IMG/VR virus record: IMGVR_UViG_3300016467_000502
Span: 12,785-76,784 of that record
Reading direction: 5' to 3' (one strand)
DNA length: 64,000 nt
DNA from: a virus
Taxonomy: Duplodnaviria; Heunggongvirae; Uroviricota; Caudoviricetes
Both the position numbers and the translations under genes were made by a program. This document shows positions 1,010-60,198 of the stretch, in pieces (position 1 is the stretch's first letter; the number at the start of each line of letters is the position of its first letter). The notes under the pieces are model-generated. The model saw only the letters and a program-made list of their open reading frames with translations, made no database searches and was not told the DNA's origin.

Positions 1010-3211
1010 TTAACGTAAGTTCCTGAACGGATTTCTGGGTTTTTTCATAAGTGAAGAACTGCCATTGGTTTGACCCATATGGCGAAAGGGGCTCTTATAT
1101 AATGTACTGAATTTGGAGGAGTTCTCCAAATTGGTCTGCTCACGTTCGACACGTTTGCTATAACCTCTATTTGACTCCTGCACCTTAGCAAAAGCAACGA
1201 GTGCACAGAATGCTACAAGCCTGTCGACGTTGAGCCCTTTGCGGTAGGCTTGCATCTCTTTCAGCAGCATAGGATCAGGGATTCTTTCTACTCCGTATAT
1301 AGACTTTACAATGTTTCCATGTTCATCAGTCTCATTGTCCAGCTCTTCTTCCATAAACTGTACAGCGTAGCTTAGCAGATTTCCTCGGAAGATGTTACCA
1401 ACGTTGCGCCATCCGTATTCTTGAAACACGTTGGTGTTACTCATCAGTTCTTTTAAAAACAGGATTTGGTTTTTAGGTACCAGGTATTTCTGCTTGCGCT
1501 TGGAAATCATGTACTGGATGAATAGGGAGATGTTGTTTTCTACTACTGTCCACGCATTGTACCACTCAATCATTAGCTCAAGGCGCTCATGGGTTTTATT
1601 GAGGTCGTCAAAACGACCGCACCAGCTTGCCACAATTTTGTCACGCTCAATGATCTGCTCAATACTGCCGTCTTTCTTATGACGGGTAATTTCCTGAGAA
1701 GTCTTGTAGATGAAGATGGAGCATAGCGACTCAGAGGTCGTCGTCTTACCTTCTGCCACGGGGTCAACGCTGGCATAGTACATACCAAACTGGGCATCCT
1801 TGATGGGGCGCTCATATACGCAAATAACCCCTTCCTTATTCTGAGTCTTAGGTGTAATGGGAAATTCCAGGATTGGAAGCTTCTTACTTTCCTGTGCCTG
1901 GATTTTACCGTGCTCATCGCGGTGCAGGTTTACGTACTCGGTAAAATACGTCTTGTCTTCAATGCGTCTGAGCTGCTGGGTAACCAGGTGAAGCGGAAAT
2001 ACTGAGTCTTCACGGGATGCAAATGCCTCTGAGATGTACATGGGCTTCTGAGAAACCCTCAGCTGATACTCATCCGGGCGTAGTTTCTTTTTCCAGTCCT
2101 CGCGTTCTGACAGGATCATGGTCATAGCCTCCTCTACTTTAGAGTTCCCGTACTGGTCAATGCAGGGTATCATACTCCACTGCTCTGGAATAAACAGTCC
2201 ACATTCCCCAATCTGTCCGTTCTCATCCATGAGGTTGGTTTCAACAGCTAGCACATCCTTGGAATCAGGATTTAAAATCATGTCCTTTAGCGGTTCACAC
2301 TGCTCCAGGTCACCGACAGATCCTGCTACCACAAACTGACCGGTGTAGATCATACCCGATTTCATGGCAGGAAGCAGGTACTCCAGGGTCTTACCCATGT
2401 GCGGAGCGATACCAGCCTCCTCGTGGAAGAACAGTGTACAGGGACCACCGACACCATTGGTAGGGTCTTTCTCCAGCACCAGGCCTATCAGAACGCTTTT
2501 CAGACCTACGTCACGTTTACGACCACCCTGGTTGATCTCAATCTTCTGTTCCCAGTTAAGCACCTTGTCAGGATTGCTGGGACGGTACCACGCGGTGTGG
2601 GTGTTCAGGAAGTTTCGGTATTCCTCCAGAAAACGCCAGGTACCTTTCTCTGCAATGTAGTCTTTTAGAGAGCCTGCCATCTTGTTGATGGCCCCCTCTT
2701 CAAACCAGTACAGATTGATCATCTTGGCGGCATGAAAGTATGACGAGGCAATCTGACGTTTCTTCAGGATTGCCGCGTGTTTGTAGTATTGCTTGGCTAG
2801 CTCCTCATATAACGCCATGTGGTACTGCGCGTCTCGTACATCAGGAAAGGTGAACTTACCTACCTCTTTGTTGTAAATAGGCAGGAAGTTCAGCCACATG
2901 TAGTAATCGCGCGGTAAATACCATGTCTTGTCACCATTCTTAAAGATGACACCGTTGCGACACTTGTCTTTTTCTGTGTCCCAGTAGTGTACAAAGTCTT
3001 TACTTTTAGGCGGTGCAGGGCAGTAGAACTTATCACGGTTAAACCTGCGGGCCTGCTCATTAAACTTCTGAGACGTTTCATCAAACCCATACTGGCCAGG
3101 TTCCTTGAACATCTCGTGTAAAAACGCACGAAATGTTTCACGTGTCACAAATTCCGTGTGGCTCCACTCACCAGTGGCATTATCATAGGTTGGGATTCTT
3201 ATGTACGTCAT
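1010..3211 (-). CDS. terL: terminase large subunit (ATPase + RNaseH-like nuclease domains)
   Basis: 733 aa. C-terminal nuclease-like motif YASVDPVAEGKTTTSESLCSIFIY (DP.a.G...D pattern of TerL nucleases); size and position next to a portal-like gene. Walker A is not canonical. Confidence 0.6.
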   Translation of the reverse strand: MTYIRIPTYDNATGEWSHTEFVTRETFRAFLHEMFKEPGQYGFDETSQKFNEQARRFNRDKFYCPAPPKSKDFVHYWDTEKDKCRNGVIFKNGDKTWYLPRDYYMWLNFLPIYNKEVGKFTFPDVRDAQYHMALYEELAKQYYKHAAILKKRQIASSYFHAAKMINLYWFEEGAINKMAGSLKDYIAEKGTWRFLEEYRNFLNTHTAWYRPSNPDKVLNWEQKIEINQGGRKRDVGLKSVLIGLVLEKDPTNGVGGPCTLFFHEEAGIAPHMGKTLEYLLPAMKSGMIYTGQFVVAGSVGDLEQCEPLKDMILNPDSKDVLAVETNLMDENGQIGECGLFIPEQWSMIPCIDQYGNSKVEEAMTMILSEREDWKKKLRPDEYQLRVSQKPMYISEAFASREDSVFPLHLVTQQLRRIEDKTYFTEYVNLHRDEHGKIQAQESKKLPILEFPITPKTQNKEGVICVYERPIKDAQFGMYYASVDPVAEGKTTTSESLCSIFIYKTSQEITRHKKDGSIEQIIERDKIVASWCGRFDDLNKTHERLELMIEWYNAWTVVENNISLFIQYMISKRKQKYLVPKNQILFLKELMSNTNVFQEYGWRNVGNIFRGNLLSYAVQFMEEELDNETDEHGNIVKSIYGVERIPDPMLLKEMQAYRKGLNVDRLVAFCALVAFAKVQESNRGYSKRVEREQTNLENSSKFSTLYKSPFRHMGQTNGSSSLMKKPRNPFRNLR

Positions 3212-3806: not shown

Positions 3807-4331
3807 TTACATCTGGTCATAGCCCAGTTGCTGACCTCCGCGCACCATGCTTTTCTGTTCTTCCATCAAATCTTTATATGCTCCCTTGAAGCTCATGCGG
3901 ATGGCTTCAAACTTGGCAGCTGCATTGACCAGGGAGTTGATGTTTCCATCGCGTCCGTGTTCAATGGGCGTGGTTTCCATGTACTTTGCTAAGCGGTCTA
4001 GCATATGCTTCATCCCGATGTACGCGCGGTAGGTCGGGGTCTCATACAGTTTCTTGCACATCTCTAGGGCATAGAGAATAGTCTCATCTTCCGTAGAGAA
4101 GTCAGGGTTAATCTGAGAGAGAATCAGTTCTTCCTTTTCGTTCTCAGGGGTGTCAAAAAACGGATTCATGTCAGGATTTGGGCAGCTCATGTAGAACAGG
4201 TACAGATACACTTTCATGTAGCTGTCTGGATATTCTTCCATTATGTCTTTCAGGAACTTCAGCGCATAGCAATGTTCTGATGGGATGATTGCTCCTTCAT
4301 GTATGTCAAATAGTTTTACCATGTCTTCCAA
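3807..4331 (-). CDS. hypothetical protein
   Basis: 174 aa ORF with no recognised motif. Confidence 0.55.
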   Translation of the reverse strand: MEDMVKLFDIHEGAIIPSEHCYALKFLKDIMEEYPDSYMKVYLYLFYMSCPNPDMNPFFDTPENEKEELILSQINPDFSTEDETILYALEMCKKLYETPTYRAYIGMKHMLDRLAKYMETTPIEHGRDGNINSLVNAAAKFEAIRMSFKGAYKDLMEEQKSMVRGGQQLGYDQM

Positions 4332-4512
4332 AGGTTATGTTCTTTCTTACGCGCAGTTCCTTGTGAGTGAACTGCCACATCTCTCCTGTTTTATCAATAA
4401 TGACCGTATAGACGGTATCTGTTTCATGTCCGTAGTCTGTGACCAGCCATACAGTACCTTTGCCCCTCGGTGTGTTTACCTCTAGGCGGTTGTGTGGTTC
4501 GTAAATCATCAT
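4306..4512 (-). CDS. small hypothetical protein
   Basis: 68 aa. Its start overlaps the stop of the upstream gene in an ATGA arrangement at 4509-4512 (translational coupling). Confidence 0.4.
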   Translation of the reverse strand: MMIYEPHNRLEVNTPRGKGTVWLVTDYGHETDTVYTVIIDKTGEMWQFTHKELRVRKNITFGRHGKTI

Positions 4513-5225
4513 AGCAGCGTAACTTGTATTTGTTCATCTCTATCCACCAATACGTAATACAATTCAATGTCGCTGCTCCACTCCAAACCTGTCCAGAATT
4601 CAAAGCCTTTAAACCCTGCCTTGTATCGGCAACATTTCTCATAACCTCCCAGCAGGTACACGTGCGTGCATCCTAGCGCTGCAGCTAGCTCACACTCGTG
4701 CATCTGTGCGATGTTACCCAGTGACAACTTGGGGTGTTCATAGTTCCAGATAAACTGCATGGCCAAAAACTGGTCTTCGTAAATCTTATAAAAGCTCACG
4801 CCTACTAGTTTATCATCATGCCAGTACTCAATGCAACTACATCCTTCAAAGAATTCCCACTGGATATCCCTGGCAAAGTCATGGTAATTGCAATACTGCT
4901 CGTAAAGCTGCATGTAATCCGCCTGATTCAGTGTCAAATCACCCGGCTGGGTGCGCACCTTGCGGCTTAGTTTTCTGACAGTTTCTGTCGGGCGGTATTG
5001 TGCAACTTCTAAGCGGACGCTGCGCACATTATACCAGTCAGAGCCCCAGGGAATCCAGCCTTCTTTTAGTGCGTCCGCTCCAGACTCTCCCGGCTCCAAT
5101 ACCCCATAAGGCGCTGAGTAGATAAAGTCCAAGTCAGAAACCTTACCAAATCCTTCTATATGGTCAAAGTGTATTTTCACTTTTTCTTCTTCTTTTGCAG
5201 GGCGGCTGCATTGTCTTTGTACCAA
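4509..5225 (-). CDS. aminoacyl-tRNA--protein transferase-like protein (ATE_C domain; Bpt/ATE1 family of N-end-rule transferases)
   Basis: C-terminal motif HVYLLGGYEKCCRYKAGFKGFEFWTGLEW matches the ATE_C signature YLGY..C.KM.YK..F.P.E..W. Upstream LYEQYCNYH and LVGVSFYKIYEDQFLAMQFIWNYEH also fit. About 240 aa, as for bacterial Bpt. Confidence 0.55.
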   Translation of the reverse strand: MVQRQCSRPAKEEEKVKIHFDHIEGFGKVSDLDFIYSAPYGVLEPGESGADALKEGWIPWGSDWYNVRSVRLEVAQYRPTETVRKLSRKVRTQPGDLTLNQADYMQLYEQYCNYHDFARDIQWEFFEGCSCIEYWHDDKLVGVSFYKIYEDQFLAMQFIWNYEHPKLSLGNIAQMHECELAAALGCTHVYLLGGYEKCCRYKAGFKGFEFWTGLEWSSDIELYYVLVDRDEQIQVTLL

Positions 5226-6025
5226 CTCATGATAGATAAGACCTCATCTTTAAGATAAGGCAACTGGTAAGGAATCACCTCTTTTACAATGGGTTCTCCG
5301 TTGCTGTCAAGCTTACTAATAGGGTATCCAAACTCATCCTTCTCATCTTCCTCTTCAAACAAGATGTGATGTATGCGCAAGGACCCAGGCTTAAGGTTAG
5401 GGTTATGCTTCAGTATCATAAACATGTAGATACTTAACTGAAGATTGTAATGGTTCAGGTTGCAATCATCCAGGTGAGACACAGGGAAGTTCATCTTCTG
5501 GGAGATACCCTCCCAGTTCTTGAACGATTCTGCCTTGATTTCTTTGTTGGTTTTGTAGTCGGTAATGTGTACCATACCATTGGCAACCTCCACCAAATCA
5601 CTCTGTCCGCAGATGCCAGCAGAGCGCAGGTATACCATGTGTTCAGGATAGATTCCTTCAATCAGTTTCTGAGAAGGTGCGACCTTCTTACCATGCTCAT
5701 CAAACATGGGGCGGATTACCGGCAGTTCCCTGTCGTGACGTGTCAGGGTAACACAGCCGGTAATATCCTGCTCCCGCTGGTCATGGTACCAATTCCCCAG
5801 GTTGCAGGCGCGTTCTGATTCACGCTTCCATGCGGCCTGGATCTGTTCAACAGTCATACCATACCATTTCCCCTTTTTGTTGGCGGCACTTTTCTTCGCT
5901 ACTGTGTCGCTGTCAAAGGGTTGTTTTAGATGTCCGATCAGCGTGGTGACGCTGGTCCAGACAGTACTATCGCTGGTATCAATGCTCTTATACGAGTGGG
6001 TTGAGGGTTCAAATACTAACGCCAT
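5177..6025 (-). CDS. PD-(D/E)XK nuclease (Cas4/RecB/lambda-Exo-like)
   Basis: Motifs GQSDLVEV ... HITDYKTNK (D-x(n)-D/E-x-K) and QLSIYM (QxxxY). Confidence 0.6.
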   Translation of the reverse strand: MALVFEPSTHSYKSIDTSDSTVWTSVTTLIGHLKQPFDSDTVAKKSAANKKGKWYGMTVEQIQAAWKRESERACNLGNWYHDQREQDITGCVTLTRHDRELPVIRPMFDEHGKKVAPSQKLIEGIYPEHMVYLRSAGICGQSDLVEVANGMVHITDYKTNKEIKAESFKNWEGISQKMNFPVSHLDDCNLNHYNLQLSIYMFMILKHNPNLKPGSLRIHHILFEEEDEKDEFGYPISKLDSNGEPIVKEVIPYQLPYLKDEVLSIMSWYKDNAAALQKKKKK

Positions 6026-7335: not shown

Positions 7336-7785
7336 TTAATCTAACAGCACCCAGTCTTCAGCCAGGATATCTGTTTGAGATGCTAACCAAGGCACGTAGT
7401 CTGAATATCCAGCACCCCAATAATGAGAATCACCAGCAGTTTTCATTACAATATGAGGAAGCATTTGTCCTGCCTTACCTTGTGTTTGTCCTTCTACTTC
7501 TGAATCAACAGCAGCCGAGTTTAAATGTCCGTTAACTGGGTATCCTTGAACTAAAGTCAAATACATTCCTTTACCATTCCATCCTTGACGGCATACTTTT
7601 TTACCATCTTTCATAGCTTCAATAGCCTGGCCAAACGTCAACCCCGCGTTGATCTTTGTTACACTGTATTTCTGACTTAGCGTTTGCATAAATTGTTCAA
7701 CGTCTGACGGAAACGTTACAACCGCATTGTCCCACTGCTTTTGCCAGTCTCTGACTTCAGCAATAAGCTCTAGTAAATTTTTCAT
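7336..7785 (-). CDS. DUF2829-domain protein (Tad2-like; candidate Thoeris anti-defence cyclic-nucleotide sponge)
   Basis: GKKVCRQGWNGKGMYL and C-terminal WLASQTDILAEDWVLLD match the DUF2829/Tad2 hallmark segments as recalled. About 47 aa of N-terminal extension. Confidence 0.55.
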   Translation of the reverse strand: MKNLLELIAEVRDWQKQWDNAVVTFPSDVEQFMQTLSQKYSVTKINAGLTFGQAIEAMKDGKKVCRQGWNGKGMYLTLVQGYPVNGHLNSAAVDSEVEGQTQGKAGQMLPHIVMKTAGDSHYWGAGYSDYVPWLASQTDILAEDWVLLD

Positions 7786-8048
7786 TTCTTTAACCCCTTG
7801 GCAATGCCCTTTACTGCATACATCTGCGCGGTTTCTAAATGTTCCATAGCAATGTCAAAGCATCTTTTCTGTTCAAGATGTGCTTCGATATCAACAATTG
7901 TAGAATTGATTTTCTCATTGTTGCAGTAGTCAATGGCATCTGCCATCATACGTTTGAATGTTCCAATCTTGTCATCCGAAGATGGATTGAAATTGATGTG
8001 ACATCTGGACTCCCCCAGTGTCAATGTTTTCATGTCTGTGTTTTCCAT
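7782..8048 (-). CDS. hypothetical protein
   Basis: 88 aa ORF overlapping its neighbour by 4 nt. Confidence 0.5.
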   Translation of the reverse strand: MENTDMKTLTLGESRCHINFNPSSDDKIGTFKRMMADAIDYCNNEKINSTIVDIEAHLEQKRCFDIAMEHLETAQMYAVKGIAKGLKK

Positions 8049-8937: not shown

Positions 8938-9225
8938 TTACCACACAATTGCTACCTCGTACTCATTCAGCATCAGGTAATGCTTGTCTTCCAATGGCAC
9001 GACTTCACAGCTTTGTAATGCACTGCCGGAGATATACACTTCATCTCCCGCCTTTACACCTTCCACTTCTTCACCTACCGCAGACACTTTGAGGCGTGTC
9101 CACTTGCTGATGAATTCACGGTCCAGTGCAGCTTGCTGTTCTGGGGTCAGCTCAATAGCTGACTTTGGACGCTCTGGTTTCTCGATGAGAATACGGCGTC
9201 CCTTTAGGGCTTTAAACTCTAACAT
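8938..9225 (-). CDS. GroES/Hsp10-like co-chaperonin (T4 gp31 functional analogue)
   Basis: 95 aa. GRRILIEKPE ... AGDEVYIS ... YEVAIVW mirrors the GroES layout RVIVKR / GDIVIF / ILAIV. Confidence 0.55.
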   Translation of the reverse strand: MLEFKALKGRRILIEKPERPKSAIELTPEQQAALDREFISKWTRLKVSAVGEEVEGVKAGDEVYISGSALQSCEVVPLEDKHYLMLNEYEVAIVW

Positions 9226-12698: not shown

Positions 12699-12840
12699 TC
12701 TTGCCAGCGCTAGCTACCTCTAATCAGTTAGTATCACCCCTAACAGTTCTTTCCAGGCACCAATCAGCACTAGTATTTATTACGTAAAAACATCTACTAA
12801 AGTGATGTTTAATACGTAAAAACATGTATATTATAAGTGT

Positions 12841-13353
12841 ATGGAACACAGAAATATACCAATTGAAGGTCTTGAGAACTATCAAGTTACTGAAGACGGG
12901 CAGGTTTACAACACCAAAACCAAGCGCTACAGAAAGCATTTCATCAATCCTGGAGGCTATGCGGTGGTCAATATCATGATCAAAGCCAAGAGCAGAACCT
13001 TTCAGGTTCACCGTTTGGTTGCTGCTGCTTTCTGCAAGAATGACGGCTATCCTGTTGTAAATCACATAGATGGCGACAAGTTGAACAATCACTACACCAA
13101 CCTTGAGTGGTGTTCACACGCACATAACCGACTGCACTCTGCAAGAGTTCTGGGAAACACAGACAGTAAACACTTGTTTCAACCAGGTAATGCTAGCAGG
13201 TCCAGACCATGTCGCATTGTAAAAGGCCCAAAACCAGGTGATTATCCTTCTTTCAAAGCTGCTGCAGATGCTAATGGAACTACAAGCTCTTACCTTTCCA
13301 CCATTGTCAGACGCAACATTAACTCATCAGTCTTCATTGTAGAAAGACTCTGA
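12841..13353 (+). CDS. HNH homing endonuclease (HNH_3/AP2-like)
   Basis: VVNHIDGDKLNNHYTNLEWCSHAHNRLH is a classic HNH_3 motif. Confidence 0.7.
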   Translation: MEHRNIPIEGLENYQVTEDGQVYNTKTKRYRKHFINPGGYAVVNIMIKAKSRTFQVHRLVAAAFCKNDGYPVVNHIDGDKLNNHYTNLEWCSHAHNRLHSARVLGNTDSKHLFQPGNASRSRPCRIVKGPKPGDYPSFKAAADANGTTSSYLSTIVRRNINSSVFIVERL

Positions 13354-32485: not shown

Positions 32486-33355
32486 AACAACGTTCTTTGA
32501 CATATACTCTTTCATGTACAATAGTACCAAACAAACCTCCGCGTGTGCTGACACAGAGATCAGATGTGAGGGAGCGGTTCCCACAGTTCAATGTACTCTT
32601 TATCCAGTAAGCGCTATATCCGCTGAACCATCATTGAGTGCCTTCCCAGCCGCAGGGTAGAACAAGCAGGAGATTGATCAGGGAAATGTAACATGAAAGA
32701 TGAGATTAAGGAGTGAGTTAAAAGACCAACAAGAGGAAAATGATCACCCAGATGGTACCGAGTAGGTGTATCTGTAGTACTCTTAACGCGATTGAAGCAA
32801 CACCTCCTCAGGTTTATACATGGTTGACAACAATAGTCCGAGCTATCTTCAAGCGGGTGTGATTAACCCGTGGCTCCGCGTGAATACTAAATCATAGAGA
32901 TCACAGACTAGAACAAGGCGCACCGCTTGAAGAGCGGTTTAATACAACTAAACAAACGCCAAGTTCCGTTGTCATCCATGTACAGGCTACGCAGTACAGA
33001 TAGCAGGCCGGGTAGCTCCCGGTCGCCCCAGTTGAACAAAAGTCCAGGTAAGATGCGCATAATCCTGGTGCGCTATAGTACTGGGTTCTGTACTGCATCC
33101 ACACAGTCAGGCTGCGAGTAATCAGCAGTAAGGAGGCAAGATAATGAGCATATAAAAGGATTGCCTAAGGTATAAGCGGTTGCGCGGAAGCATAAGTTTC
33201 ACCGTTATAGCCTTTCCCGTGAGTGCTCTGCGTAGGGTTGCGCCCTACCCTGACTGCTAAGTGTTGTTCCCTTGAGAAAGGAATAGATAAAGGAGGATAA
33301 GCTGCTTTCAAAAGCATTGTATCTCACAACACAGAGGACTTCTCATCCTCAACAT

Positions 33356-33437
33356 AGTCAGGTGACTGAATTGGTTAAGGTTGCCTCCCGCTGATGACGG
33401 GATAGAGTATATACAGGTTCGAATCCTGTCCTGACTA
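33356..33437 (+). tRNA. tRNA-like unit A (Ile-like anticodon arm GAT; noncanonical 3-nt insertion before anticodon stem and 10-nt variable region)
   Basis: Acceptor agtcagg/cctgact, D act-gaattggttaa-ggt, anticodon arm tcccg-ctGATga-cggga, T arm acagg-ttcgaat-cctgt; 82 nt. Confidence 0.45.
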
Positions 33438-33491
33438 CCGTAGGTTTATTTGAGAGTAAAGACCTATTCAAAAATCTTAATAACTCTTGTT

Positions 33492-33564
33492 AGTCAGGTG
33501 GCGGAATTGGCAGACGCACTGGGAATAAAATCCTTGGGTACAGGTTCGAATCCTGTCCTGACTA
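33492..33564 (+). tRNA. tRNA-like unit B (Leu-type D arm, anticodon TAA position but A33 and 3-bp anticodon stem, no long variable arm; likely degenerate)
   Basis: Same acceptor and T arm as unit A; D arm gcg-gaattggcaga-cgc; loop aaTAAaa. Confidence 0.35.
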
Positions 33565-33685
33565 CAACAGCTCTTAACGTAAGAGAACGAAACATAGATT
33601 TGGCATCCCATAAGAACTGCTCGCTCAAAATCTCTAAATCGTTAGTTAGCAATGTTTGTGACTCATTAATGTAAAAGTCACACAT

Positions 33686-33793
33686 AGTCAGAGAAGCATG
33701 ATTAGGTTATATGCCCCACCTGGGTTGAAGGCTGGTAACTTCATTAAACAGATGCCGCATGGGAGATAGCAGGTTCGAATCCTGTCCTGACTA
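33686..33793 (+). ncRNA. tRNA-like unit C (108 nt; extra hairpin and an 8-nt anticodon-like loop gctGGTaa; not a canonical tRNA)
   Basis: Acceptor agtcaga/cctgact (6 of 7 bp), D-like gcat-gattaggttat-atgc, stem tgaag/cttca, identical 3' half. Confidence 0.3.
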
Positions 33794-33875
33794 CAAACTT
33801 ATGTTTGCATACAGAGTAATCTGTCGTCAAAGTCCTGAGCATATTGACGTTAAAGACTTTAAACTGCTTAAACAT

Positions 33876-33957
33876 AGTCAGGTGGCGGAATGGCAGACGC
33901 TGATGTAGATGAAGCATGGTAAGTTCATCCTTACAGGTTCGAATCCTGTCCTGACTA
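33876..33957 (+). tRNA. tRNA-like unit D (Leu-type D arm; anticodon loop agatgaa lacks U33; noncanonical)
   Basis: Acceptor agtcagg/cctgact, D arm gcg-gaatggcaga-cgc, class II length of 82 nt, identical 3' half. Confidence 0.35.
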
Positions 33958-34085
33958 CGAATGTGGTTCAACTCCACTCGTTGACTGAGGTTATGGTAAG
34001 TAGGTGTGCCAAGGTTCGAGCCCTTGGGTCTGGTGACAGATGATGGTAGACACGAACAGTCTGACTGCAGGGAAAGACCTGTCAG

Positions 34086-34168
34086 GCCCAAGTGGTGGAA
34101 TTGGTAGACACACACGTCTCAGAAGCGTGTATCCAAAAGATGTGCAGGTTCGAGTCCTGTCCTGGGCA
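34086..34168 (+). tRNA. tRNA-Leu (anticodon CAG), class II
   Basis: Acceptor gcccaag/cctgggc, D arm gtg-gaattggtaga-cac, anticodon arm cacgt-ctCAGaa-gcgtg, 14-nt variable arm, T arm gcagg-ttcgagt-cctgt. Confidence 0.8.
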
Positions 34169-34170
34169 CT

Positions 34171-50058: not shown

Positions 50059-50799
50059 ATGTATATTCTTGATATGAATACTACACATATTTACGTACTT
50101 ATTGACCCAAGAACTGATGAAGTCAGGTATGTAGGAAAAGCAAACAATGTTTCACAGAGATATAAAGCTCATCTGAACAGAGCAAGAAAACACCAGGTGC
50201 ATAAAGCAAACTGGATTAAAGCTCTGACACAAGAAAAGTTGAAACCAATTGTAGAAGTTGTTGACACTGTTAACATTGAAGACTGGGTTTTTTGGGAATC
50301 GTATTGGATCAGCCAGTTTAGAACCTGGGGATTCAATCTACTAAACTACACACACGGTGGAGAAGGTACAACATTTGGCAATCAAACCTCATTTAGTAAA
50401 GGCAACAAACCTTGGAATAGAGGTAAAGGTCATACAAAAGCATGTGAGGTATGCGGTAATTCTTTCAATGTACATCCTGCAAGCAGTAAAAAACGAAGGA
50501 CATGCTCACATGAATGTTCTAAACATCTTACTACTAAGCAGTTAAATCCTAATAGATTTTCAAAAGGTGCACGGGCATGGAATAAAAACTTGCAAGGATA
50601 TAAGATTGGCGGTTTGAAAAAATCGTTACCAGTTCTACAATACACATTAGATGGAACATTTGTTCAAGAATTTGCAGGTTGTAAAGAAGCTGCACAAAGC
50701 ATGAACTGCATACCTGAAAACATCAGAAGAGCCTGTGTAGGCAAAAGCAAAACAGCTAAAAATTTTATATGGAAATACAAATATGAAACACAACACTAA
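50059..50799 (+). CDS. GIY-YIG homing endonuclease with C-terminal zinc finger/NUMOD-like region (freestanding)
   Basis: HIYVLIDPRTDEVRYVGKA...RYKAH (GIY-YIG), CEVCGNSF...CSHECSKH. Confidence 0.65.
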   Translation: MYILDMNTTHIYVLIDPRTDEVRYVGKANNVSQRYKAHLNRARKHQVHKANWIKALTQEKLKPIVEVVDTVNIEDWVFWESYWISQFRTWGFNLLNYTHGGEGTTFGNQTSFSKGNKPWNRGKGHTKACEVCGNSFNVHPASSKKRRTCSHECSKHLTTKQLNPNRFSKGARAWNKNLQGYKIGGLKKSLPVLQYTLDGTFVQEFAGCKEAAQSMNCIPENIRRACVGKSKTAKNFIWKYKYETQH

Positions 50800-51568
50800 C
50801 CTCATTGGGATTAGCGGGAAGCTAAACAGTGGGAAAGACACAGTAGCTGCTATCATTCAGTTTCTTACAGCTGAAGACCGTTCAGCAGTTTGTGAAGACC
50901 TGCTCAAAAACGGCAGAAGTATTCAAGGACATCACAACAGCAGATATGAAATCAAAAAGTTTGCAGGCAAGCTGAAGACCATAGCGTCCTTGCTTACAGG
51001 TATTCCTGTAGAGAAGTTTGAAGACCAAGAGTTCAAGAAAGAATACCTGGGTGAAGAGTGGAGTGTGCATGTGTGGAACGACCCAGACCCAATTGAAGAC
51101 AATGATTATCGCATTACCTCTCGTGTACAGTATGAAGGCGACACATCGCTGATTACTTATAATGAAGGTTATAGCGAAGCAGAAGTCTTTGATGATGAAA
51201 TTGAAGAAATACCTATGACAGTACGCGAACTTTTGCAGAAACTAGGTACTGAAGCTATGCGTGAGGGATTGCATCGAAACGTATGGGTCAACGCATTGTT
51301 TGCTGATTACAGACCCATCAAGCTTTCCCAGGACGACCCCAGCTACTGGCTGGTGACTGACACGCGCTTCCCCAATGAGGCAGAAGCCATTACTGAACGC
51401 GGCGGAATCCTGCTGCGCATTGAGCGTCCCGGTGCATCCACCGGTGACCACCCGTCTGAGACGGCACTTGACGACTACCCGTTTGAACATGTGATCATGA
51501 ACGACGGTGACTTAAACGACCTGATCAACAAGGTCAGGTATTTCTTAACTCAACAAAACATCATCTGA
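50783..51568 (+). CDS. deoxynucleoside monophosphate kinase (T4 gp1-like)
   Basis: LIGISGKLNSGKDTVAAII: P-loop in a dNMP-kinase context. Confidence 0.55.
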   Translation: MKHNTNLIGISGKLNSGKDTVAAIIQFLTAEDRSAVCEDLLKNGRSIQGHHNSRYEIKKFAGKLKTIASLLTGIPVEKFEDQEFKKEYLGEEWSVHVWNDPDPIEDNDYRITSRVQYEGDTSLITYNEGYSEAEVFDDEIEEIPMTVRELLQKLGTEAMREGLHRNVWVNALFADYRPIKLSQDDPSYWLVTDTRFPNEAEAITERGGILLRIERPGASTGDHPSETALDDYPFEHVIMNDGDLNDLINKVRYFLTQQNII

Positions 51569-52625: not shown

Positions 52626-53285
52626 TTAGCTTAAGCTTTTGAGCATCTCCACCATCTTAGGATGCGGGTAGATGTCTACTTTGTCTTTTCTGACAGAGTT
52701 ATGGGTAAACACTCCTGCCTCTCCTTTGAGAGCGCGGGGTGTTACATCCCAGATGTCCTCATCATATGTGAGAGGAATACCGTACTTGTTTTTCCACAAC
52801 AACAAAAGTTGTCTGGTTGACTCGATCTGTTTGTCTGTGTAGTTGTGATAGAACTTGTGCCCTTTGTAAGGAGTTGCAAGTTCACAGACTTCATCTGCCG
52901 GAACTTCCTTGCCCACGTAGTTATAGAACTTACCGTTCTTTTGCGTGAGCTGTCCCCAGCAACATATCTCGATACCAATGCTGTTTTTGTCCAAAGCTCT
53001 GTAAGGCACCTTGTGTGTTTTAAATACAGACTCTTTGACACCCAGGTGGTACGCCCAGTACTTGGAAGAAAATCCCTGTACGATTTGACCATCTAGTTCT
53101 GGCTTGCCAGGAATCTTACCAGTGATGGTTACACAGGTAGCAATACGTTCAGGATTGCTGGCCCATGCTCTAAATACAGCTTCACCATCAGCATTGCCTG
53201 CTGTATGATGAATATAAATCTGTGTCTTTCTGTGTTCTTCCTGCAGATACTGTCCTGCGGGAAACTCTACTTGTTTGATATTCAT
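52626..53285 (-). CDS. N-acetylmuramoyl-L-alanine amidase (Amidase_2/PGRP; endolysin candidate)
   Basis: TQIYIHHTAGNADGEAVFRAWASN is an Amidase_2 HHTAG-type motif. Confidence 0.6.
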   Translation of the reverse strand: MNIKQVEFPAGQYLQEEHRKTQIYIHHTAGNADGEAVFRAWASNPERIATCVTITGKIPGKPELDGQIVQGFSSKYWAYHLGVKESVFKTHKVPYRALDKNSIGIEICCWGQLTQKNGKFYNYVGKEVPADEVCELATPYKGHKFYHNYTDKQIESTRQLLLLWKNKYGIPLTYDEDIWDVTPRALKGEAGVFTHNSVRKDKVDIYPHPKMVEMLKSLS

Positions 53286-54581: not shown

Positions 54582-56501
54582 ATGGAAGAAACACCCATTC
54601 TCCAAAGGGATTCATCATCTGTAATCCCTTGGGGACCAGTAGGTTACGTTACCTACAAGCGTACCTACTCCCGTCCATTGCAAAATGGAAAAACTGAAGA
54701 ATGGCAGGACACTATTGAACGTGTCATCACTGCCTGCAGAGAACAGCTGAACGTAGGTTTCAGCCCTTCTGAAGAAGCAGCGGTTCGTCACATGATGATG
54801 AACCTGAAAGGAACTGTGGCAGGACGATTCCTGTGGCAGCTCGGAACAAAAACGGTAGACTCCCTGGGTCTGCCTTCATTACAAAACTGTGCGTTCGTTG
54901 TCGTGGACGCGGCTATCAGACCCTTTACCTGGACGTTTGAGATGTTGATGCTGGGCTCAGGTGTTGGATTTAACATCCAGCGCGAGCACGTATACCAAAT
55001 CCCCAAGGTTGTTGGTAAGGTGACTATTGAGCGCAAAGACGTAAACGACGCTGACTTCATCGTTCCAGACTCCCGCGAGGGCTGGGTAGAGCTGCTACGT
55101 CGCGTGCTAGAAGCATCGTTTGTAACCGGTAAAGGATTCAGCTTTGCCACACACCTCATTCGATCCAAGGGTTCACCCATCAAAGGTTTTGGCGGGGTAG
55201 CTTCTGGACCGGAAGACCTGGTCCGTGGTATGCAGCAGATCAATAACCTGTTGAACAACCGTGCCGGTCAGCGCGTGCGTCCGATTGACTGCCTTGACAT
55301 CATGAACATCATTGGTAGCATCGTTGTTGCCGGTAATGTGAGACGCTCTGCACAAATTGCCCTAGGGGATTATGACGACTTTGAATTCCTGCGCGCCAAG
55401 CGTTGGGATTTGGGTGGCATTCCCAACTGGAGAGCAATGAGTAACAACTCCGTGATCTGTGACGACACCGCCAAGTTACCAGAGGAGTTCTGGGAAGGAT
55501 ACAAAGGAAACGGTGAACCGTATGGTCTTATCAACCTAGACGCTGCCCGTCGCATGGGTAGAACTGGGGAGACTCAGTATCCAGATTCTGACGTTATGGG
55601 CTTCAACCCTTGTGCAGAACAGTCCCTGGCCAACTTTGAAACGTGCTGTTTGGCAGAGATTTATTTGCCCAACATCAACAGCCTGGGTGAATTGCTAGAG
55701 GTAGCGCGTTTGCTCTACCGCATCAACAAGCACTCTTTGGCCATTAAGTGTGCCGTGCAGGAAACAGAAGACATTGTACATCAGAATATGCGTATGGGTA
55801 TCGGGGTTACCGGTTACTTGCAGGCTACTGAAGAACAGAAGTCTTGGTTAACCAGCTGCTACACGTATCTCAGAGCTTATGACAAAGAGTACAGTGAACA
55901 TAAAGGATTCAATCCTTCCATCAAGCTGACTACTGTAAAGCCTTCAGGTACGTTAAGTCTACTGGCTGGAGTCACTTCAGGTGCTCATCCAGGATACTCG
56001 CAGTTCTACATCCGCCGTATCCGCATGGCGTCTGACAGCCCGATTGTAAATGTGTGTCGCACGCATGGTTATCACGTCGAATACCAGCGTAAGTTTGATG
56101 GAACAGAAGATCACTCTACCGTAGTGGTGTCTTTCCCTTGCAAGTTTCCTGAGGGAACGATGCTCGCAAACGACATGAGCGCAATCGATCAGCTGAAGGT
56201 AATCCAGCGTTTGCAGACTGAGTGGTCTGACAACGCAGTATCGGTGACCATCTACTACCGCAAACATGAGTTGGAGGAAATCCGTAACTGGCTTGCCGAC
56301 AACTATGTGAATGTAAAGTCTGTGTCTTTCTTACTGCACAACGAGCACGGTTTTGACCAGGCTCCGCTAGAAGAAATCACAGAAGAAAAGTACCTGGAGC
56401 TTTCTGGCGGTGTAAAAACCATTACCAGCTTTGATGAGACCATCAACCTGGATGATATGGACATCGCAGATTGTGACGGAGGTGCTTGTCCAGTACGCTA
56501 A
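54582..56501 (+). CDS. nrdJ: ribonucleotide reductase class II (adenosylcobalamin-dependent, monomeric NrdJ)
   Basis: NPCAEQSLANFETCCLAEIYL (compare NPCGEQ...CNL) and C-terminal redox cysteines CDGGACPV. Confidence 0.75.
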   Translation: MEETPILQRDSSSVIPWGPVGYVTYKRTYSRPLQNGKTEEWQDTIERVITACREQLNVGFSPSEEAAVRHMMMNLKGTVAGRFLWQLGTKTVDSLGLPSLQNCAFVVVDAAIRPFTWTFEMLMLGSGVGFNIQREHVYQIPKVVGKVTIERKDVNDADFIVPDSREGWVELLRRVLEASFVTGKGFSFATHLIRSKGSPIKGFGGVASGPEDLVRGMQQINNLLNNRAGQRVRPIDCLDIMNIIGSIVVAGNVRRSAQIALGDYDDFEFLRAKRWDLGGIPNWRAMSNNSVICDDTAKLPEEFWEGYKGNGEPYGLINLDAARRMGRTGETQYPDSDVMGFNPCAEQSLANFETCCLAEIYLPNINSLGELLEVARLLYRINKHSLAIKCAVQETEDIVHQNMRMGIGVTGYLQATEEQKSWLTSCYTYLRAYDKEYSEHKGFNPSIKLTTVKPSGTLSLLAGVTSGAHPGYSQFYIRRIRMASDSPIVNVCRTHGYHVEYQRKFDGTEDHSTVVVSFPCKFPEGTMLANDMSAIDQLKVIQRLQTEWSDNAVSVTIYYRKHELEEIRNWLADNYVNVKSVSFLLHNEHGFDQAPLEEITEEKYLELSGGVKTITSFDETINLDDMDIADCDGGACPVR

Positions 56502-58206: not shown

Positions 58207-60198
58207 TTAGTCTATTAAATCAAGAACGTCTGCAATCTGAATAAAGTCAAAGTCATCTTCCACGCGATAGCGATATGAAGAAACGTTGGCGCCTTCTAAG
58301 CGAAATGATGGATATCTATCCCAAGCTTCATAGTCATTCTTGAGGAACATCATCTTGTATTTGGTACCAAAAGGTTGTTTGATAACAGGGTTTTGGATTC
58401 TTACATTGTAAAACGCGTCAACACATTTGAAGTGAGTTGTCTGTCCATTTAGATATGTAATGCTTGTACCTCTGTTTCCAGGATCTTTTGAGAAGCATGC
58501 ATTGAGTACTGTTCCCTCGTTTGTAAAATCAAAATCAGTATTATTTTGCTGAGTGTACAAACGCTGAACAAGCTCATCAGCATCGCCCCAACCGGTATGA
58601 AACTGTATACCAAAAGGTCCCTCATACACAGGCAGCAGAATATCAGGCTTGTCACCTAGAAGTCTCCACAATGGGTTATTATCAGCATCCACACTTGACA
58701 AGTCAGGTCTGCAATATCCATTTACTAAATCACAAGTAAATCCTTCAGGACATGGCTCTGTTTCAGAACATGCTAAACCTGAGTTACCGCCACTTACAAT
58801 GATAGACTTGAGTCTTCTTTTTCCTTTGCCAGCTCTGGAAAGCTTAACATATCCATAGTCTTCAGTATCAGAAGATCCGTAAATTCTATATTCTTCTCCA
58901 TCATCCCAATCTGTGTGTAACTCTATGCTACCATCTGCAGCGTCATGTGTTTTTATACCAGGCCCTCTATAAATAGCACCACCTCCAGGTTTTGCACCAA
59001 TCTGCAGCCACACTTGATTTGTTACATCTGGTACGCACACGCCTTCTTCATGACACATGAATCCATCAGGACAATCTCCATCTCTAGAACACACAAAAGA
59101 ATTACTCAAACCTTCACCGACAAGAAGTCGTCTGATTTGTGTGCCATCAACACATGTGTAACCATAACGAGAACTTGCAAAAGAGTTATTGCAATCTGAA
59201 GAGCTCGTCTGACCATAAACCAAATAACTACTACCATCAAAAGACAGTTGGTTAGTAACACCAATGTCATCAATGGTGAATGTCATAGGTACATTGACTG
59301 TCACCTTGCAGCTGTAAGGTTGAATACCTCTGTCAATATTGTTTTCAGCACCACATGAGTTAAGCGTAACAGATTTAGTTGAGCGCAAGAAATAACCAAG
59401 ACCTGACAGTTTTGTCATACAACCATCTATCAATGTGTACTTTTCGTCTTTGATCATGAATCCTGCAAGCTTGCAAGACTCTGCGCGACAAGAGTTAATG
59501 ATATTACTCTTACCGCTATCAAGCATAAATCCATGGCCTGCGGCATTCAGTACGGTACAGTTTTCAATTATTGCACTCATTGCACCCAGGATTAAGATTC
59601 CATGGTTGCGGGTACCGTTGACTACAACGTTCTGAAGCACCACATCATTGATAAATTCACTTTCAGAAAAAGGACTGCCTTTGATTATGTGTACTCCACC
59701 AGCACCGGTTGAGTTATACAAAGTGCTTTGCTGATCATCATCAACTGCAATGTCAGAAGCAATTCCTTTGAGCTCAACATTACGCAGTTCAAAACCATTG
59801 CGAGACACCCAGTTTTCCTGTTCTGCCATTTCCACAGTTGCACCTACAAATACATGGTATCCTGCACCGGCACCATTCATAACAAATTGTGTAACACCAG
59901 CATCACCAACTGTGGTTGAACGTGACGCTCCCATAATTTTTACATTAGGTGCATATACGTTGAACATGTTTGTGTTGCCTGTGCCAGAATAAGTCAGAGT
60001 CAGGTTTCCAAATAAAAGCGTAACGCTTCTTGTGATGTTGATAGGAGCTCTAAAAGTGATTCGTCCTGAGTAAGAGGTGCAATCAATTACAGTACCTGGT
60101 GCTGCGTTTTTAACTGCGTTCTGCAGTTTTGCAGCAAAACTTGCCGCTTGAACAACAGGTAATCCAGGAGAAAATGTTTCAAGTTTTACAGTAGCCAT
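58207..60198 (-). CDS. tail spike / tail fibre protein with pectate-lyase-like beta-helix (depolymerase candidate)
   Basis: 663 aa. Repetitive G/N/V/T-rich beta-helix-like segments (NVELKGIASDIAV, VHIIKGSPF, NAAGHGFMLDSGKSNIINS) and a Cys-rich C-terminal region. Confidence 0.55.
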   Translation of the reverse strand: MATVKLETFSPGLPVVQAASFAAKLQNAVKNAAPGTVIDCTSYSGRITFRAPINITRSVTLLFGNLTLTYSGTGNTNMFNVYAPNVKIMGASRSTTVGDAGVTQFVMNGAGAGYHVFVGATVEMAEQENWVSRNGFELRNVELKGIASDIAVDDDQQSTLYNSTGAGGVHIIKGSPFSESEFINDVVLQNVVVNGTRNHGILILGAMSAIIENCTVLNAAGHGFMLDSGKSNIINSCRAESCKLAGFMIKDEKYTLIDGCMTKLSGLGYFLRSTKSVTLNSCGAENNIDRGIQPYSCKVTVNVPMTFTIDDIGVTNQLSFDGSSYLVYGQTSSSDCNNSFASSRYGYTCVDGTQIRRLLVGEGLSNSFVCSRDGDCPDGFMCHEEGVCVPDVTNQVWLQIGAKPGGGAIYRGPGIKTHDAADGSIELHTDWDDGEEYRIYGSSDTEDYGYVKLSRAGKGKRRLKSIIVSGGNSGLACSETEPCPEGFTCDLVNGYCRPDLSSVDADNNPLWRLLGDKPDILLPVYEGPFGIQFHTGWGDADELVQRLYTQQNNTDFDFTNEGTVLNACFSKDPGNRGTSITYLNGQTTHFKCVDAFYNVRIQNPVIKQPFGTKYKMMFLKNDYEAWDRYPSFRLEGANVSSYRYRVEDDFDFIQIADVLDLID

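Follow-up and report, generated by a model that had tools for sequence, protein, structure and literature searches.

The DNA analyzed here, referred to as the window, is a stretch of 64,000 nucleotides (nt) that covers positions 12,785 to 76,784 of the IMG/VR virus record IMGVR_UViG_3300016467_000502 and is part of a 125.7-kb metagenomic contig (~45% GC). Near its beginning lie two overlapping minus-strand genes, one encoding a relative of the aminoacyl-tRNA-dependent transferases ATE1 and Bpt and the other a small partner protein, g68. To our knowledge, the only function known for tRNA-dependent, non-ribosomal protein aminoacylation (by ATE1, Bpt and Aat) is a cellular one, in housekeeping or in N-degrons. 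The two genes are as follows.

4509..5180, minus strand: predicted ATE/Bpt-like aminoacyl-tRNA-dependent transferase, 223 amino acids (aa); start codon GTG at 5180-5178, stop codon TGA at 4511-4509; assigned from Pfam ATE_C, hhalign, the fold match of an AlphaFold2 (AF2) model, and the ratio of nonsynonymous to synonymous substitution (dN/dS).
4306..4512, minus strand: g68, the 68-aa partner, whose ATG overlaps the transferase stop codon; predicted five-strand SH3/Tudor/KOW-like beta-barrel.

The initial annotation had placed the transferase gene, with no strand given, in an open reading frame at 4509..5225 encoding 238 aa. That frame exists, on the minus strand, but its length probably does not hold: it yields 238 aa only if read from a TTG that falls 46 nt within the upstream gene, and this TTG-initiated reading up to 5225 is probably an over-extension. 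A public gene call (P0001) is 223 aa long and 100% identical, all homologues in the family alignment start with MK[IV]xFDH, and the GTG at 5180 overlaps the TGA of the upstream gene (GTGA), in the same way that the transferase TGA overlaps the ATG of g68 (ATGA). We therefore took the gene as 4509-5180 on the minus strand, with GTG 5180-5178 as the most likely start and a product of 223 aa. The three peptides originally quoted from the product are all found in the translated frame; it had also been said to end with YLLGGYEKCCRYKAGFKGFEFWTGLEW (the YLLGGY...GLEW block), after which 22 more residues follow.

Profile and fold comparisons indicate that the encoded protein is a genuine, phage-encoded member of the ATE/Bpt superfamily, with a resemblance to ATE_C far beyond chance. 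The resemblance proposed from the sequence alone was borne out by Pfam ATE_C (PF04377), which matched at 41.4 bits (E=2.5e-10) against a gathering cutoff of 25 and was found in 41/41 family members; the second Pfam match of the transferase was to the clan relative Acetyltransf_6. Because a sequence-only profile search of the PDB gave an alignment confined to the C-terminal half, real Bpt sequences were brought in as a bridge, using genes from chromid and plasmid records of A. baumannii (where bpt lies beside aat), S. meliloti, Aeromonas and Azospirillum. Over residues 53-202, hhalign aligned the phage family to these four proteins with 96.6% probability (E=5.5e-10). An AF2 model built on A1, the profile/alignment of the 41 family members, reached a predicted local distance difference test score (pLDDT) of 89.2 and a predicted TM-score (pTM) of 0.86. 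The structural comparison with ATE1 suggested by the initial annotation came out clearly, as the top 24 PDB matches of this model were all ATE1 chains. Human ATE1 was the best (8tzv_A, E 3.5e-9, TMq 0.67), and the yeast and K. lactis structures were matched at ~3e-6. After ATE1, the only structures matched were other aminoacyl-tRNA-dependent GNAT transferases, namely MprF, FemX, Aat (L/F-transferase) and Sbb17/Sba18, at E ~1e-5.

The catalytic residues of the family are present and could be placed by alignment to K. lactis Ate1 (klAte1).

4620..4625, minus strand: codons of Tyr186-Lys187, equivalent to klAte1 Tyr303-Lys304, with the Lys also equivalent to FemX Lys305; from the alignment to 7wfx.

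Both residues are invariant in A1. Among 101 representatives of the wider clade, the position of Lys187 is Lys in 100, and that of Tyr186 is Tyr in 85 and Trp in 12. The K304A and Y303F substitutions abolish the activity of klAte1, whose catalytic Lys is the equivalent of FemX Lys305 (PMC9351520). A Lys/Arg-rich helix at residues 66-72, taken with its flanks (TVRKLSRKVR in the AF2 model), aligns to the basic Bpt segment SRGQKRIRQLNR; in klAte1 a basic helix with K112/K115/K119/R120/K123 binds the tRNA acceptor arm (PMC9351520). The phage homologue is probably an active enzyme, and we think it reasonably likely that it acts as an aminoacyl-tRNA-dependent aminoacyl transferase belonging to a virus-specific, minimized clade of ATE1/Bpt. 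A pseudoenzyme, decoy or regulator would bind or sequester charged tRNA or g68 with no transfer taking place. Such a role would fit the heavy minimization relative to ATE1/Bpt and the loss of substrate-binding elements, yet it seems very improbable to us, given that the Lys (100/101), an adjacent Tyr or Trp (97/101) and the pocket Glu discussed below (80/101) are retained. Since the catalytic residues have been kept across a clade that has diverged to ~25-40% identity, their retention argues for chemistry and not for binding only.

The donor side-chain pocket may indicate which amino acid would be transferred.

4695..4697, minus strand: codon of Glu162, in the donor side-chain pocket; equivalent to klAte1 Glu277 and Bpt Gln189 by alignment.

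Alignments to 7wfx and to Bpt place Ala140/Ala158/Glu162/Val174 in this pocket, and the consensus for the 101 representatives is Ser/Ser/Glu/Leu. The corresponding residues are Ser255/Ser273/Glu277/Tyr289 in klAte1 and Ala168/Ala185/Gln189/Leu201 in Bpt, where they make a hydrophobic, uncharged pocket for Leu (PMC9351520). In klAte1 the charge that the Arg side chain requires is set by Glu277: E277K and E277A are nearly dead, and E277D behaves as wild type (PMC9351520). Glu162 does not vary within A1, and 80 of the 101 representatives carry Glu there. Since the acidic residue of the ATE1 type is kept, we infer from these four positions that a basic donor, Arg or possibly Lys, would be likelier than the Leu used by Bpt.

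In the N-terminal half, the acceptor site is remodeled and has a Trp-rich hairpin.

5043..5060, minus strand: codons of G41-W-I-P-W-G46, the counterpart of ATE_N GFRRSG, with Ile43 in place of klAte1 Arg80.

Alignment of a real Bpt to the 7wfx chain identified klAte1 Arg80 as the first Arg of GFRRSG and Tyr87 as the Tyr four residues after the motif. Global and permissive hhalign runs both aligned the phage segment GWIPWGSDWYN--------VRSVRL with the GFRRSG/Cys-loop segment of Bpt, making Ile43 equivalent to Arg80, Pro44 to Arg81 and Tyr50 to Tyr87, with an 8-residue deletion after GWIPWG that takes out the Cys loop. A divergent ATE_C protein from Bernardetia (GWRHFGTHFYR) aligns with the phage protein in the same register, independently of Bpt. 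Position 43 is Leu, Ile or Ala in 77/101 clade representatives, and Arg or Lys occurs at 43/44 in 4/101. Arg80 of klAte1 lies in a positively charged acceptor pocket and is essential for substrates with N-terminal Asp/Glu, R80E being inactive (PMC9351520). The ATE_N domain (PF04376), which the initial annotation had named beside ATE_C, was detected in none of the 41 family members (0/41), even with the threshold relaxed to E<=1; under the same model the real Bpts scored 76-82 bits and the Bernardetia protein 20 bits. The CX2CXnCC zinc or Fe-S site, a zinc site critical for stability and function of scATE1 (PMC10115844), has no counterpart in the phage protein, and 41/101 representatives are without any Cys in the N-terminal 60 positions. 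In A1 the family instead shows an invariant N-terminal motif of its own, F5-D6-H7-x-x-G10-F11-G12-K13, together with the Trp-rich hairpin. A site remodeled in this way suggests that the acceptor is probably other than the canonical acidic N-terminus.

These results bear directly on the mechanism first proposed for the protein, a canonical N-degron writer that would add Leu, or an Arg that host Aat goes on to extend, to Asp/Glu at the N-termini of host or phage proteins, delivering these to ClpS/ClpAP. Superfamily membership and the intact catalytic core speak for it, as does the pathway logic in bacteria, where Bpt leucylates N-terminal Asp/Glu and both Bpt and Aat feed ClpS/ClpAP (PMC3692480). 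Against it stand the undetected ATE_N, Ile/Leu at the Arg80 position, the deletion of the Cys/zinc loop, and Glu (invariant in A1) for Bpt Gln189. The NCBIfam equivalog models for Bpt (PRK01305 arginyltransferase) gave 20-42 bits (best 42.1) against cutoffs of 170-358. We consider this mechanism unlikely. Three observations nonetheless count against an altered acceptor or donor. First, per-column hhalign confidence is low for the GWIPWG-GFRRSG correspondence, although two independent references agree on its register. Second, a clade-specific Arg53 (94/101) sits right behind the deleted loop and could replace Arg80, restoring recognition of acidic N-termini. Third, the pocket of the core subgroup is Bpt-like at 3/4 positions (Ala/Ala/Val), so that Leu could yet be the donor. 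The second and third also speak for the canonical writer.

Loss of the ATE/Bpt elements that recognize a protein acceptor could also mean that the acceptor is not a protein N-terminus. The enzyme might then modify a small molecule, a lipid head group, a cell-wall precursor, or a modified nucleotide or base, as transferases of the MprF, FemX and Sbb17 types do with non-protein acceptors. The GNAT fold does match MprF, FemX and the aminoacyl-tRNA-dependent peptide synthases Sbb17/Sba18 (E ~1e-5), and the replacement motif, rich in aromatic residues and lined with Trp, might accommodate a cationic amine. However, the sequence homology is specific to ATE_C/Bpt, the ATE1 fold matches better by at least 3 orders of magnitude, the protein is without a membrane domain, and genes for biosynthesis or DNA modification are not regular neighbors of the transferase gene. 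A non-protein acceptor thus seems improbable to us.

At 223 aa the phage protein approaches the size of Bpt (~240-270 aa), with which it has in common the Tyr-Lys pair, the SLG and Y.LG.Y motifs, the basic helix after an R-x-[IV] strand, and in the core group three of four donor-pocket residues (Ala/Ala/hydrophobic). It differs in having no detectable ATE_N, in GWIPWG for GFRRSG, in the deleted PxCxxCxxC loop, in an N-terminal FDHxxGFGK motif where Bpt has CxYL, and in the Gln189-to-Glu change; its ATE_C score is 42 bits versus 132-150 for real Bpts, and the gene is virus-encoded beside that of a 68-aa partner, not beside aat. ATE1 (7WFX, 7TIF, 8E3S, 8TZV) is the best structural match and has the catalytic Tyr-Lys, the Glu277/Glu162 and Trp260/Trp145 equivalences, and a pocket (S/S/E/Y) close to the clade consensus (S/S/E/L). 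In contrast to ATE1, which is ~500 aa long, the phage protein has less than half the length, ends ~35 residues past the Tyr-Lys motif without a C-terminal variable domain, and is devoid of Arg80 and of the CX2CXnCC zinc or Fe-S site; identity between them is only ~15%. Aat, FemX/FemABX, the MprF C-domain and Sbb17/Sba18 are alike in fold class and presumably in chemistry (an aminoacyl-tRNA donor and a Lys-stabilized intermediate), but they match at E ~1e-5, have other acceptor domains, and are related in sequence only at the clan level of Acetyltransf_6.

The Bernardetia sp. protein used above is an ATE_C-DUF952 fusion (WP_338791038.1; plasmid NZ_CP147018.1; L085:763-1824). Like the phage protein it has no canonical Cys loop and carries GWRHFG, the pocket Glu and the Tyr-Lys pair, and it comes from the phylum suspected for the phage host, Bacteroidota. 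Unlike the phage protein it has Arg at the Arg80 position, a weak ATE_N (20 bits) and the fused DUF952, and its similarity to the phage family is weak (hhalign E 0.007). This cellular ATE_N/ATE_C-DUF952 fusion is annotated only as 'DUF952 domain-containing protein'. On sequence comparison the phage protein therefore falls outside Bpt (by ATE_N, GFRRSG and Cys loop, equivalog score and Gln pocket) and outside ATE1 (by Arg80, metal site and architecture). It is best described as a virus-specific variant of the ATE_C superfamily with a conserved partner that is without precedent in the family.

That partner, g68, had no place in the initial annotation. When the neighbors of the transferase in the window were compared by tblastn with 81 related loci, g68 was the sole conserved neighbor, occurring at the same offset in 80; the remaining locus ends 171 nt past the transferase gene. 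Across these loci g68, at 63-90% identity, is better conserved than the transferase at 51-81%, and it has a conserved N-terminus, MIYEPxNR. Overlap between the two frames amounts to 4, 11 or 14 nt in 75/80 loci and to 35-38 nt in the other five. The nuclease, TerL and other neighbors in the window are common to only ~12 loci, and the cassette therefore occupies at least two different genomic backgrounds. Both genes are under purifying selection, with dN/dS of ~0.06 for the transferase and ~0.10 for g68. The g68 family comprises 287 clusters of 62-78 aa, and g68 gave no match in Pfam, PHROG or PADLOC. AF2 models of g68 had a pLDDT of 78 for the best and ~53 for the other four, and a Foldseek search returned generic SH3/Tudor/KOW/Agenet matches only (best E 0.27). 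Judged from gene order and frame overlap, the transferase and g68 are a translationally coupled pair. We infer that g68 works with the enzyme, either as an adaptor that replaces the lost substrate-binding elements or as a substrate.

Of 66 distant-clade loci, five have diverged homologues of g68. They overlap the transferase gene directly downstream in L120, L130 and L132, lie directly upstream in L156, and lie 4.5 kb upstream in L117; all keep the core TPKG..DYG..GE.W..N.T.GR and differ at the N-terminus. A role for g68 has to be reconciled with the fact that most distant members are without it and have another adjacent protein instead; it is therefore not universally required. At 44/66 distant loci (within L092-L164) the same overlapping downstream slot holds an unannotated protein of ~152-185 aa (for example L138:5674-6168 and L117:5665-6873) with the motif YDIPYVAGYSKDGK.VYIDRH...IHE..EKAL...AH. 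Neither Pfam nor PHROG matches its N-terminal part; 11 of the sequences have this protein fused to a phrog_36119 domain of ~240 aa that weakly resembles a nucleotidyltransferase. In 45 core loci (L031:5361-5807, L035:5558-6004 and 43 more), a 148-aa protein with a metallopeptidase-like HExxH motif, HETMH, is encoded directly upstream of the transferase; it too is without a Pfam or PHROG match, and a protease beside an N-terminal transferase would be a suggestive pairing. The window carries neither the ~160-aa HE..EK protein nor the 148-aa HExxH protein. Remote homology among g68, the ~160-aa HE..EK, the 148-aa HExxH and the WYL_2 proteins was considered and rejected, with hhalign probabilities <1%. 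Recurrent neighbors across loci also include small uncharacterized proteins, a GroES-like protein and DUF3310. The recurring theme is a conserved transferase tightly coupled to a lineage-specific small protein.

A search of 5.8 billion proteins yielded 156 clusters, nearly all of 220-231 aa and several on contigs of 117-127 kb. Many members carry the JGI automatic annotation 'arginyl-tRNA--protein-N-Asp/Glu arginylyltransferase', the acceptor part of which is probably wrong. Among 1.84 billion representatives clustered at 50% identity, the A1 profile found only 350 clusters at E<=1e-3, which makes this a compact clade separate from the large cellular Bpt/ATE1 families. In IMG/VR, 139 contigs have close relatives and at least 535 have relatives from the wider clade. 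A motif scan of 185,579 species-representative genomes gave a single hit, on a contig of 117,852 bp that had been binned into a Chitinophagaceae metagenome-assembled genome from Lake Mendota. From its size this contig is probably a phage genome, and the binning is a weak hint at a freshwater Bacteroidota host. The clade has thus far been found almost only in viruses, with the qualification that the scan patterns were specific to the core subgroup, for which alone 'virus-only' holds. The initial annotation called the gene unusual for a phage, and in this it was right: tblastn against 50,697 cultured-phage records gave no transferase match, PHROGs has no family for it, and no phage or viral ATE/Bpt enzyme was found in the literature searched. 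Megablast of the region returned only a 93-bp DUF2829 match, neither the cassette nor its neighbors matched anything in PADLOC, and BFVD contained only uncharacterized fragments from uncultured phages. Some distant-clade phage loci carry tRNAs with a CTA anticodon (amber suppressors; tRNA-Pyl according to ARAGORN) and one a predicted permuted tmRNA (L089:6961-7035, minus strand; L103:3-77, plus strand; L121:9449-9857, plus strand), a hint that those phages may recode stop codons or take over translation.

The phage origin of the gene is well anchored, as the initial annotation had assumed. TerL lies at 1010-3211 (phrog_6681), and the same-strand block that contains the transferase gene runs into it. 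Past the window start this block goes on with a portal-sized gene and then the gene of the major capsid protein, for which Pfam gives an unmarked Crass_capsid match. The source is a crAss-like phage. Upstream of the cassette are the following genes.

5177..6025, minus strand: PD-(D/E)XK exonuclease, 282 aa (PDDEXK_1; phrog_298 exonuclease, E 3.6e-27), whose stop codon overlaps the transferase start.
7336-7785, minus strand: Tad2-like (DUF2829) gene, side by side with the next and ~2 kb upstream of the cassette.
7782-8048, minus strand: Acb2/Tad1-hairpin-like gene, adjoining the Tad2-like gene.

The exonuclease gene adjoins the cassette in only 11/81 related loci and, on this distribution, is lineage-specific context outside the conserved cassette. 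The Tad2-like and Acb2/Tad1-like genes are likely anti-defense genes; the idea of an anti-defense island was rejected, as they co-occur with the cassette in 4/158 and 11/158 loci, respectively. A GroES-like co-chaperonin homologue at 8941-9225 (minus strand) is 41% identical to a phrog_3188-like protein of related loci, and a GroES-like gene lies within 6 kb of the cassette in 74/158 loci. Farther on are an HNH_3/NUMOD4 homing-endonuclease-like gene (12841-13353, plus strand; weak Pfam matches on the public gene call) with small unannotated genes around it, a dNMP kinase (DNMK) gene (50783-51568, plus strand), an Amidase_2 lysin gene (52626-53285, minus strand), a class II ribonucleotide reductase gene (54582-56501, plus strand) and a beta-helix fiber protein gene (58207-60198, minus strand). 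Shortly after the window end the contig encodes giant proteins, one 2011 aa long and another of 1464 aa or more. Sigma-70 promoter and terminator scans gave no enrichment over shuffled sequence, the sigma-70 model being ill-suited to Bacteroidota promoters.

ARAGORN called 7 tRNAs in the window, 6 of them with Rfam backing. The tRNA-Leu that the initial annotation attributed to the phage is real, a tRNA-Leu(CAG) at 34086-34169, but the link drawn from it to the transferase does not carry over to the family: in the majority of core loci no tRNA lies within 6 kb, and only around those distant members that are located in tRNA arrays is tRNA-Leu common. In sum, the initial annotation was partly supported, being right about the family and its rarity in phages, with its Asp/Glu-Leu-ClpS mechanism and tRNA link unsupported. 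The tRNA-Leu ends a tRNA-like array (33351-34169, plus strand) whose units share a common 5′ end, AGTCAGGTG, and an identical or nearly identical 27-nt segment of T-arm and 3′ acceptor sequence, TACAGGTTCGAATCCTGTCCTGACTAC. Four copies of this segment end at 33438, 33565, 33794 and 33958, and an 81% copy is found in the tRNA-Leu ending at 34169. ARAGORN reads three units, with odd A34 anticodons, as Ile(GAT), Phe(AAA) and His(ATG), and Rfam backs the first two and not His; the unit ending at 33794 was called by neither program. The array may consist of paralogous, partly degenerate tRNAs. Any tie between it and the transferase, by way of the acceptor arm that ATE1 reads, is pure speculation.

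How might such an enzyme work? In the mechanism we envisage, charged tRNA would be bound through the basic helix and its aminoacyl ester placed at Tyr186/Lys187, a pair that would stabilize the tetrahedral intermediate. The side chain would enter the Glu162 pocket, favoring Arg or Lys. The residue would then be passed to a primary amine in a site that the FDHxxGFGK motif forms together with the GWIPWG hairpin; g68 would either complete this acceptor site as an adaptor or supply the amine as a substrate. By analogy with the family, protein N-termini would be the most likely class of target, acidic ones probably not among them. Most plausibly, the output would be that certain proteins of the host or the phage receive an N-terminal tag while a Bacteroidota cell is being infected. 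Where host Aat, ClpS and ClpAP are at hand, an N-terminal Arg could act as a secondary destabilizing residue; a degradative outcome is speculation. We tentatively go a step further and suggest, with less than even confidence, that this is a viral transferase lineage whose acceptor specificity is new. Either directed by its lineage-specific small partner (the 68-aa SH3-like protein here, the ~160-aa HE..EK protein in other phages) or using it as target, the enzyme would aminoacylate, probably arginylate, something non-canonical in infection.

The cassette represents a large and strongly constrained viral clade, present on at least 535 IMG/VR contigs, which keeps the chemistry, has its target-recognition half rebuilt and is genetically locked to small partners. 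If the enzyme is active, it would show that phages redirect charged tRNA into modification, post-translational or other, and the 223-aa protein, with no metal site, would be the smallest ATE-family scaffold known and of use to mechanistic and engineering studies. One enzyme and one 68-aa protein offer an entry point to N-terminal aminoacylation in the interactions of Bacteroidota with their phages. Should the proposal of a new acceptor prove true, it would amount to a hitherto unrecognized, tRNA-dependent rewriting by phages of protein ends or other amines of the host cell.

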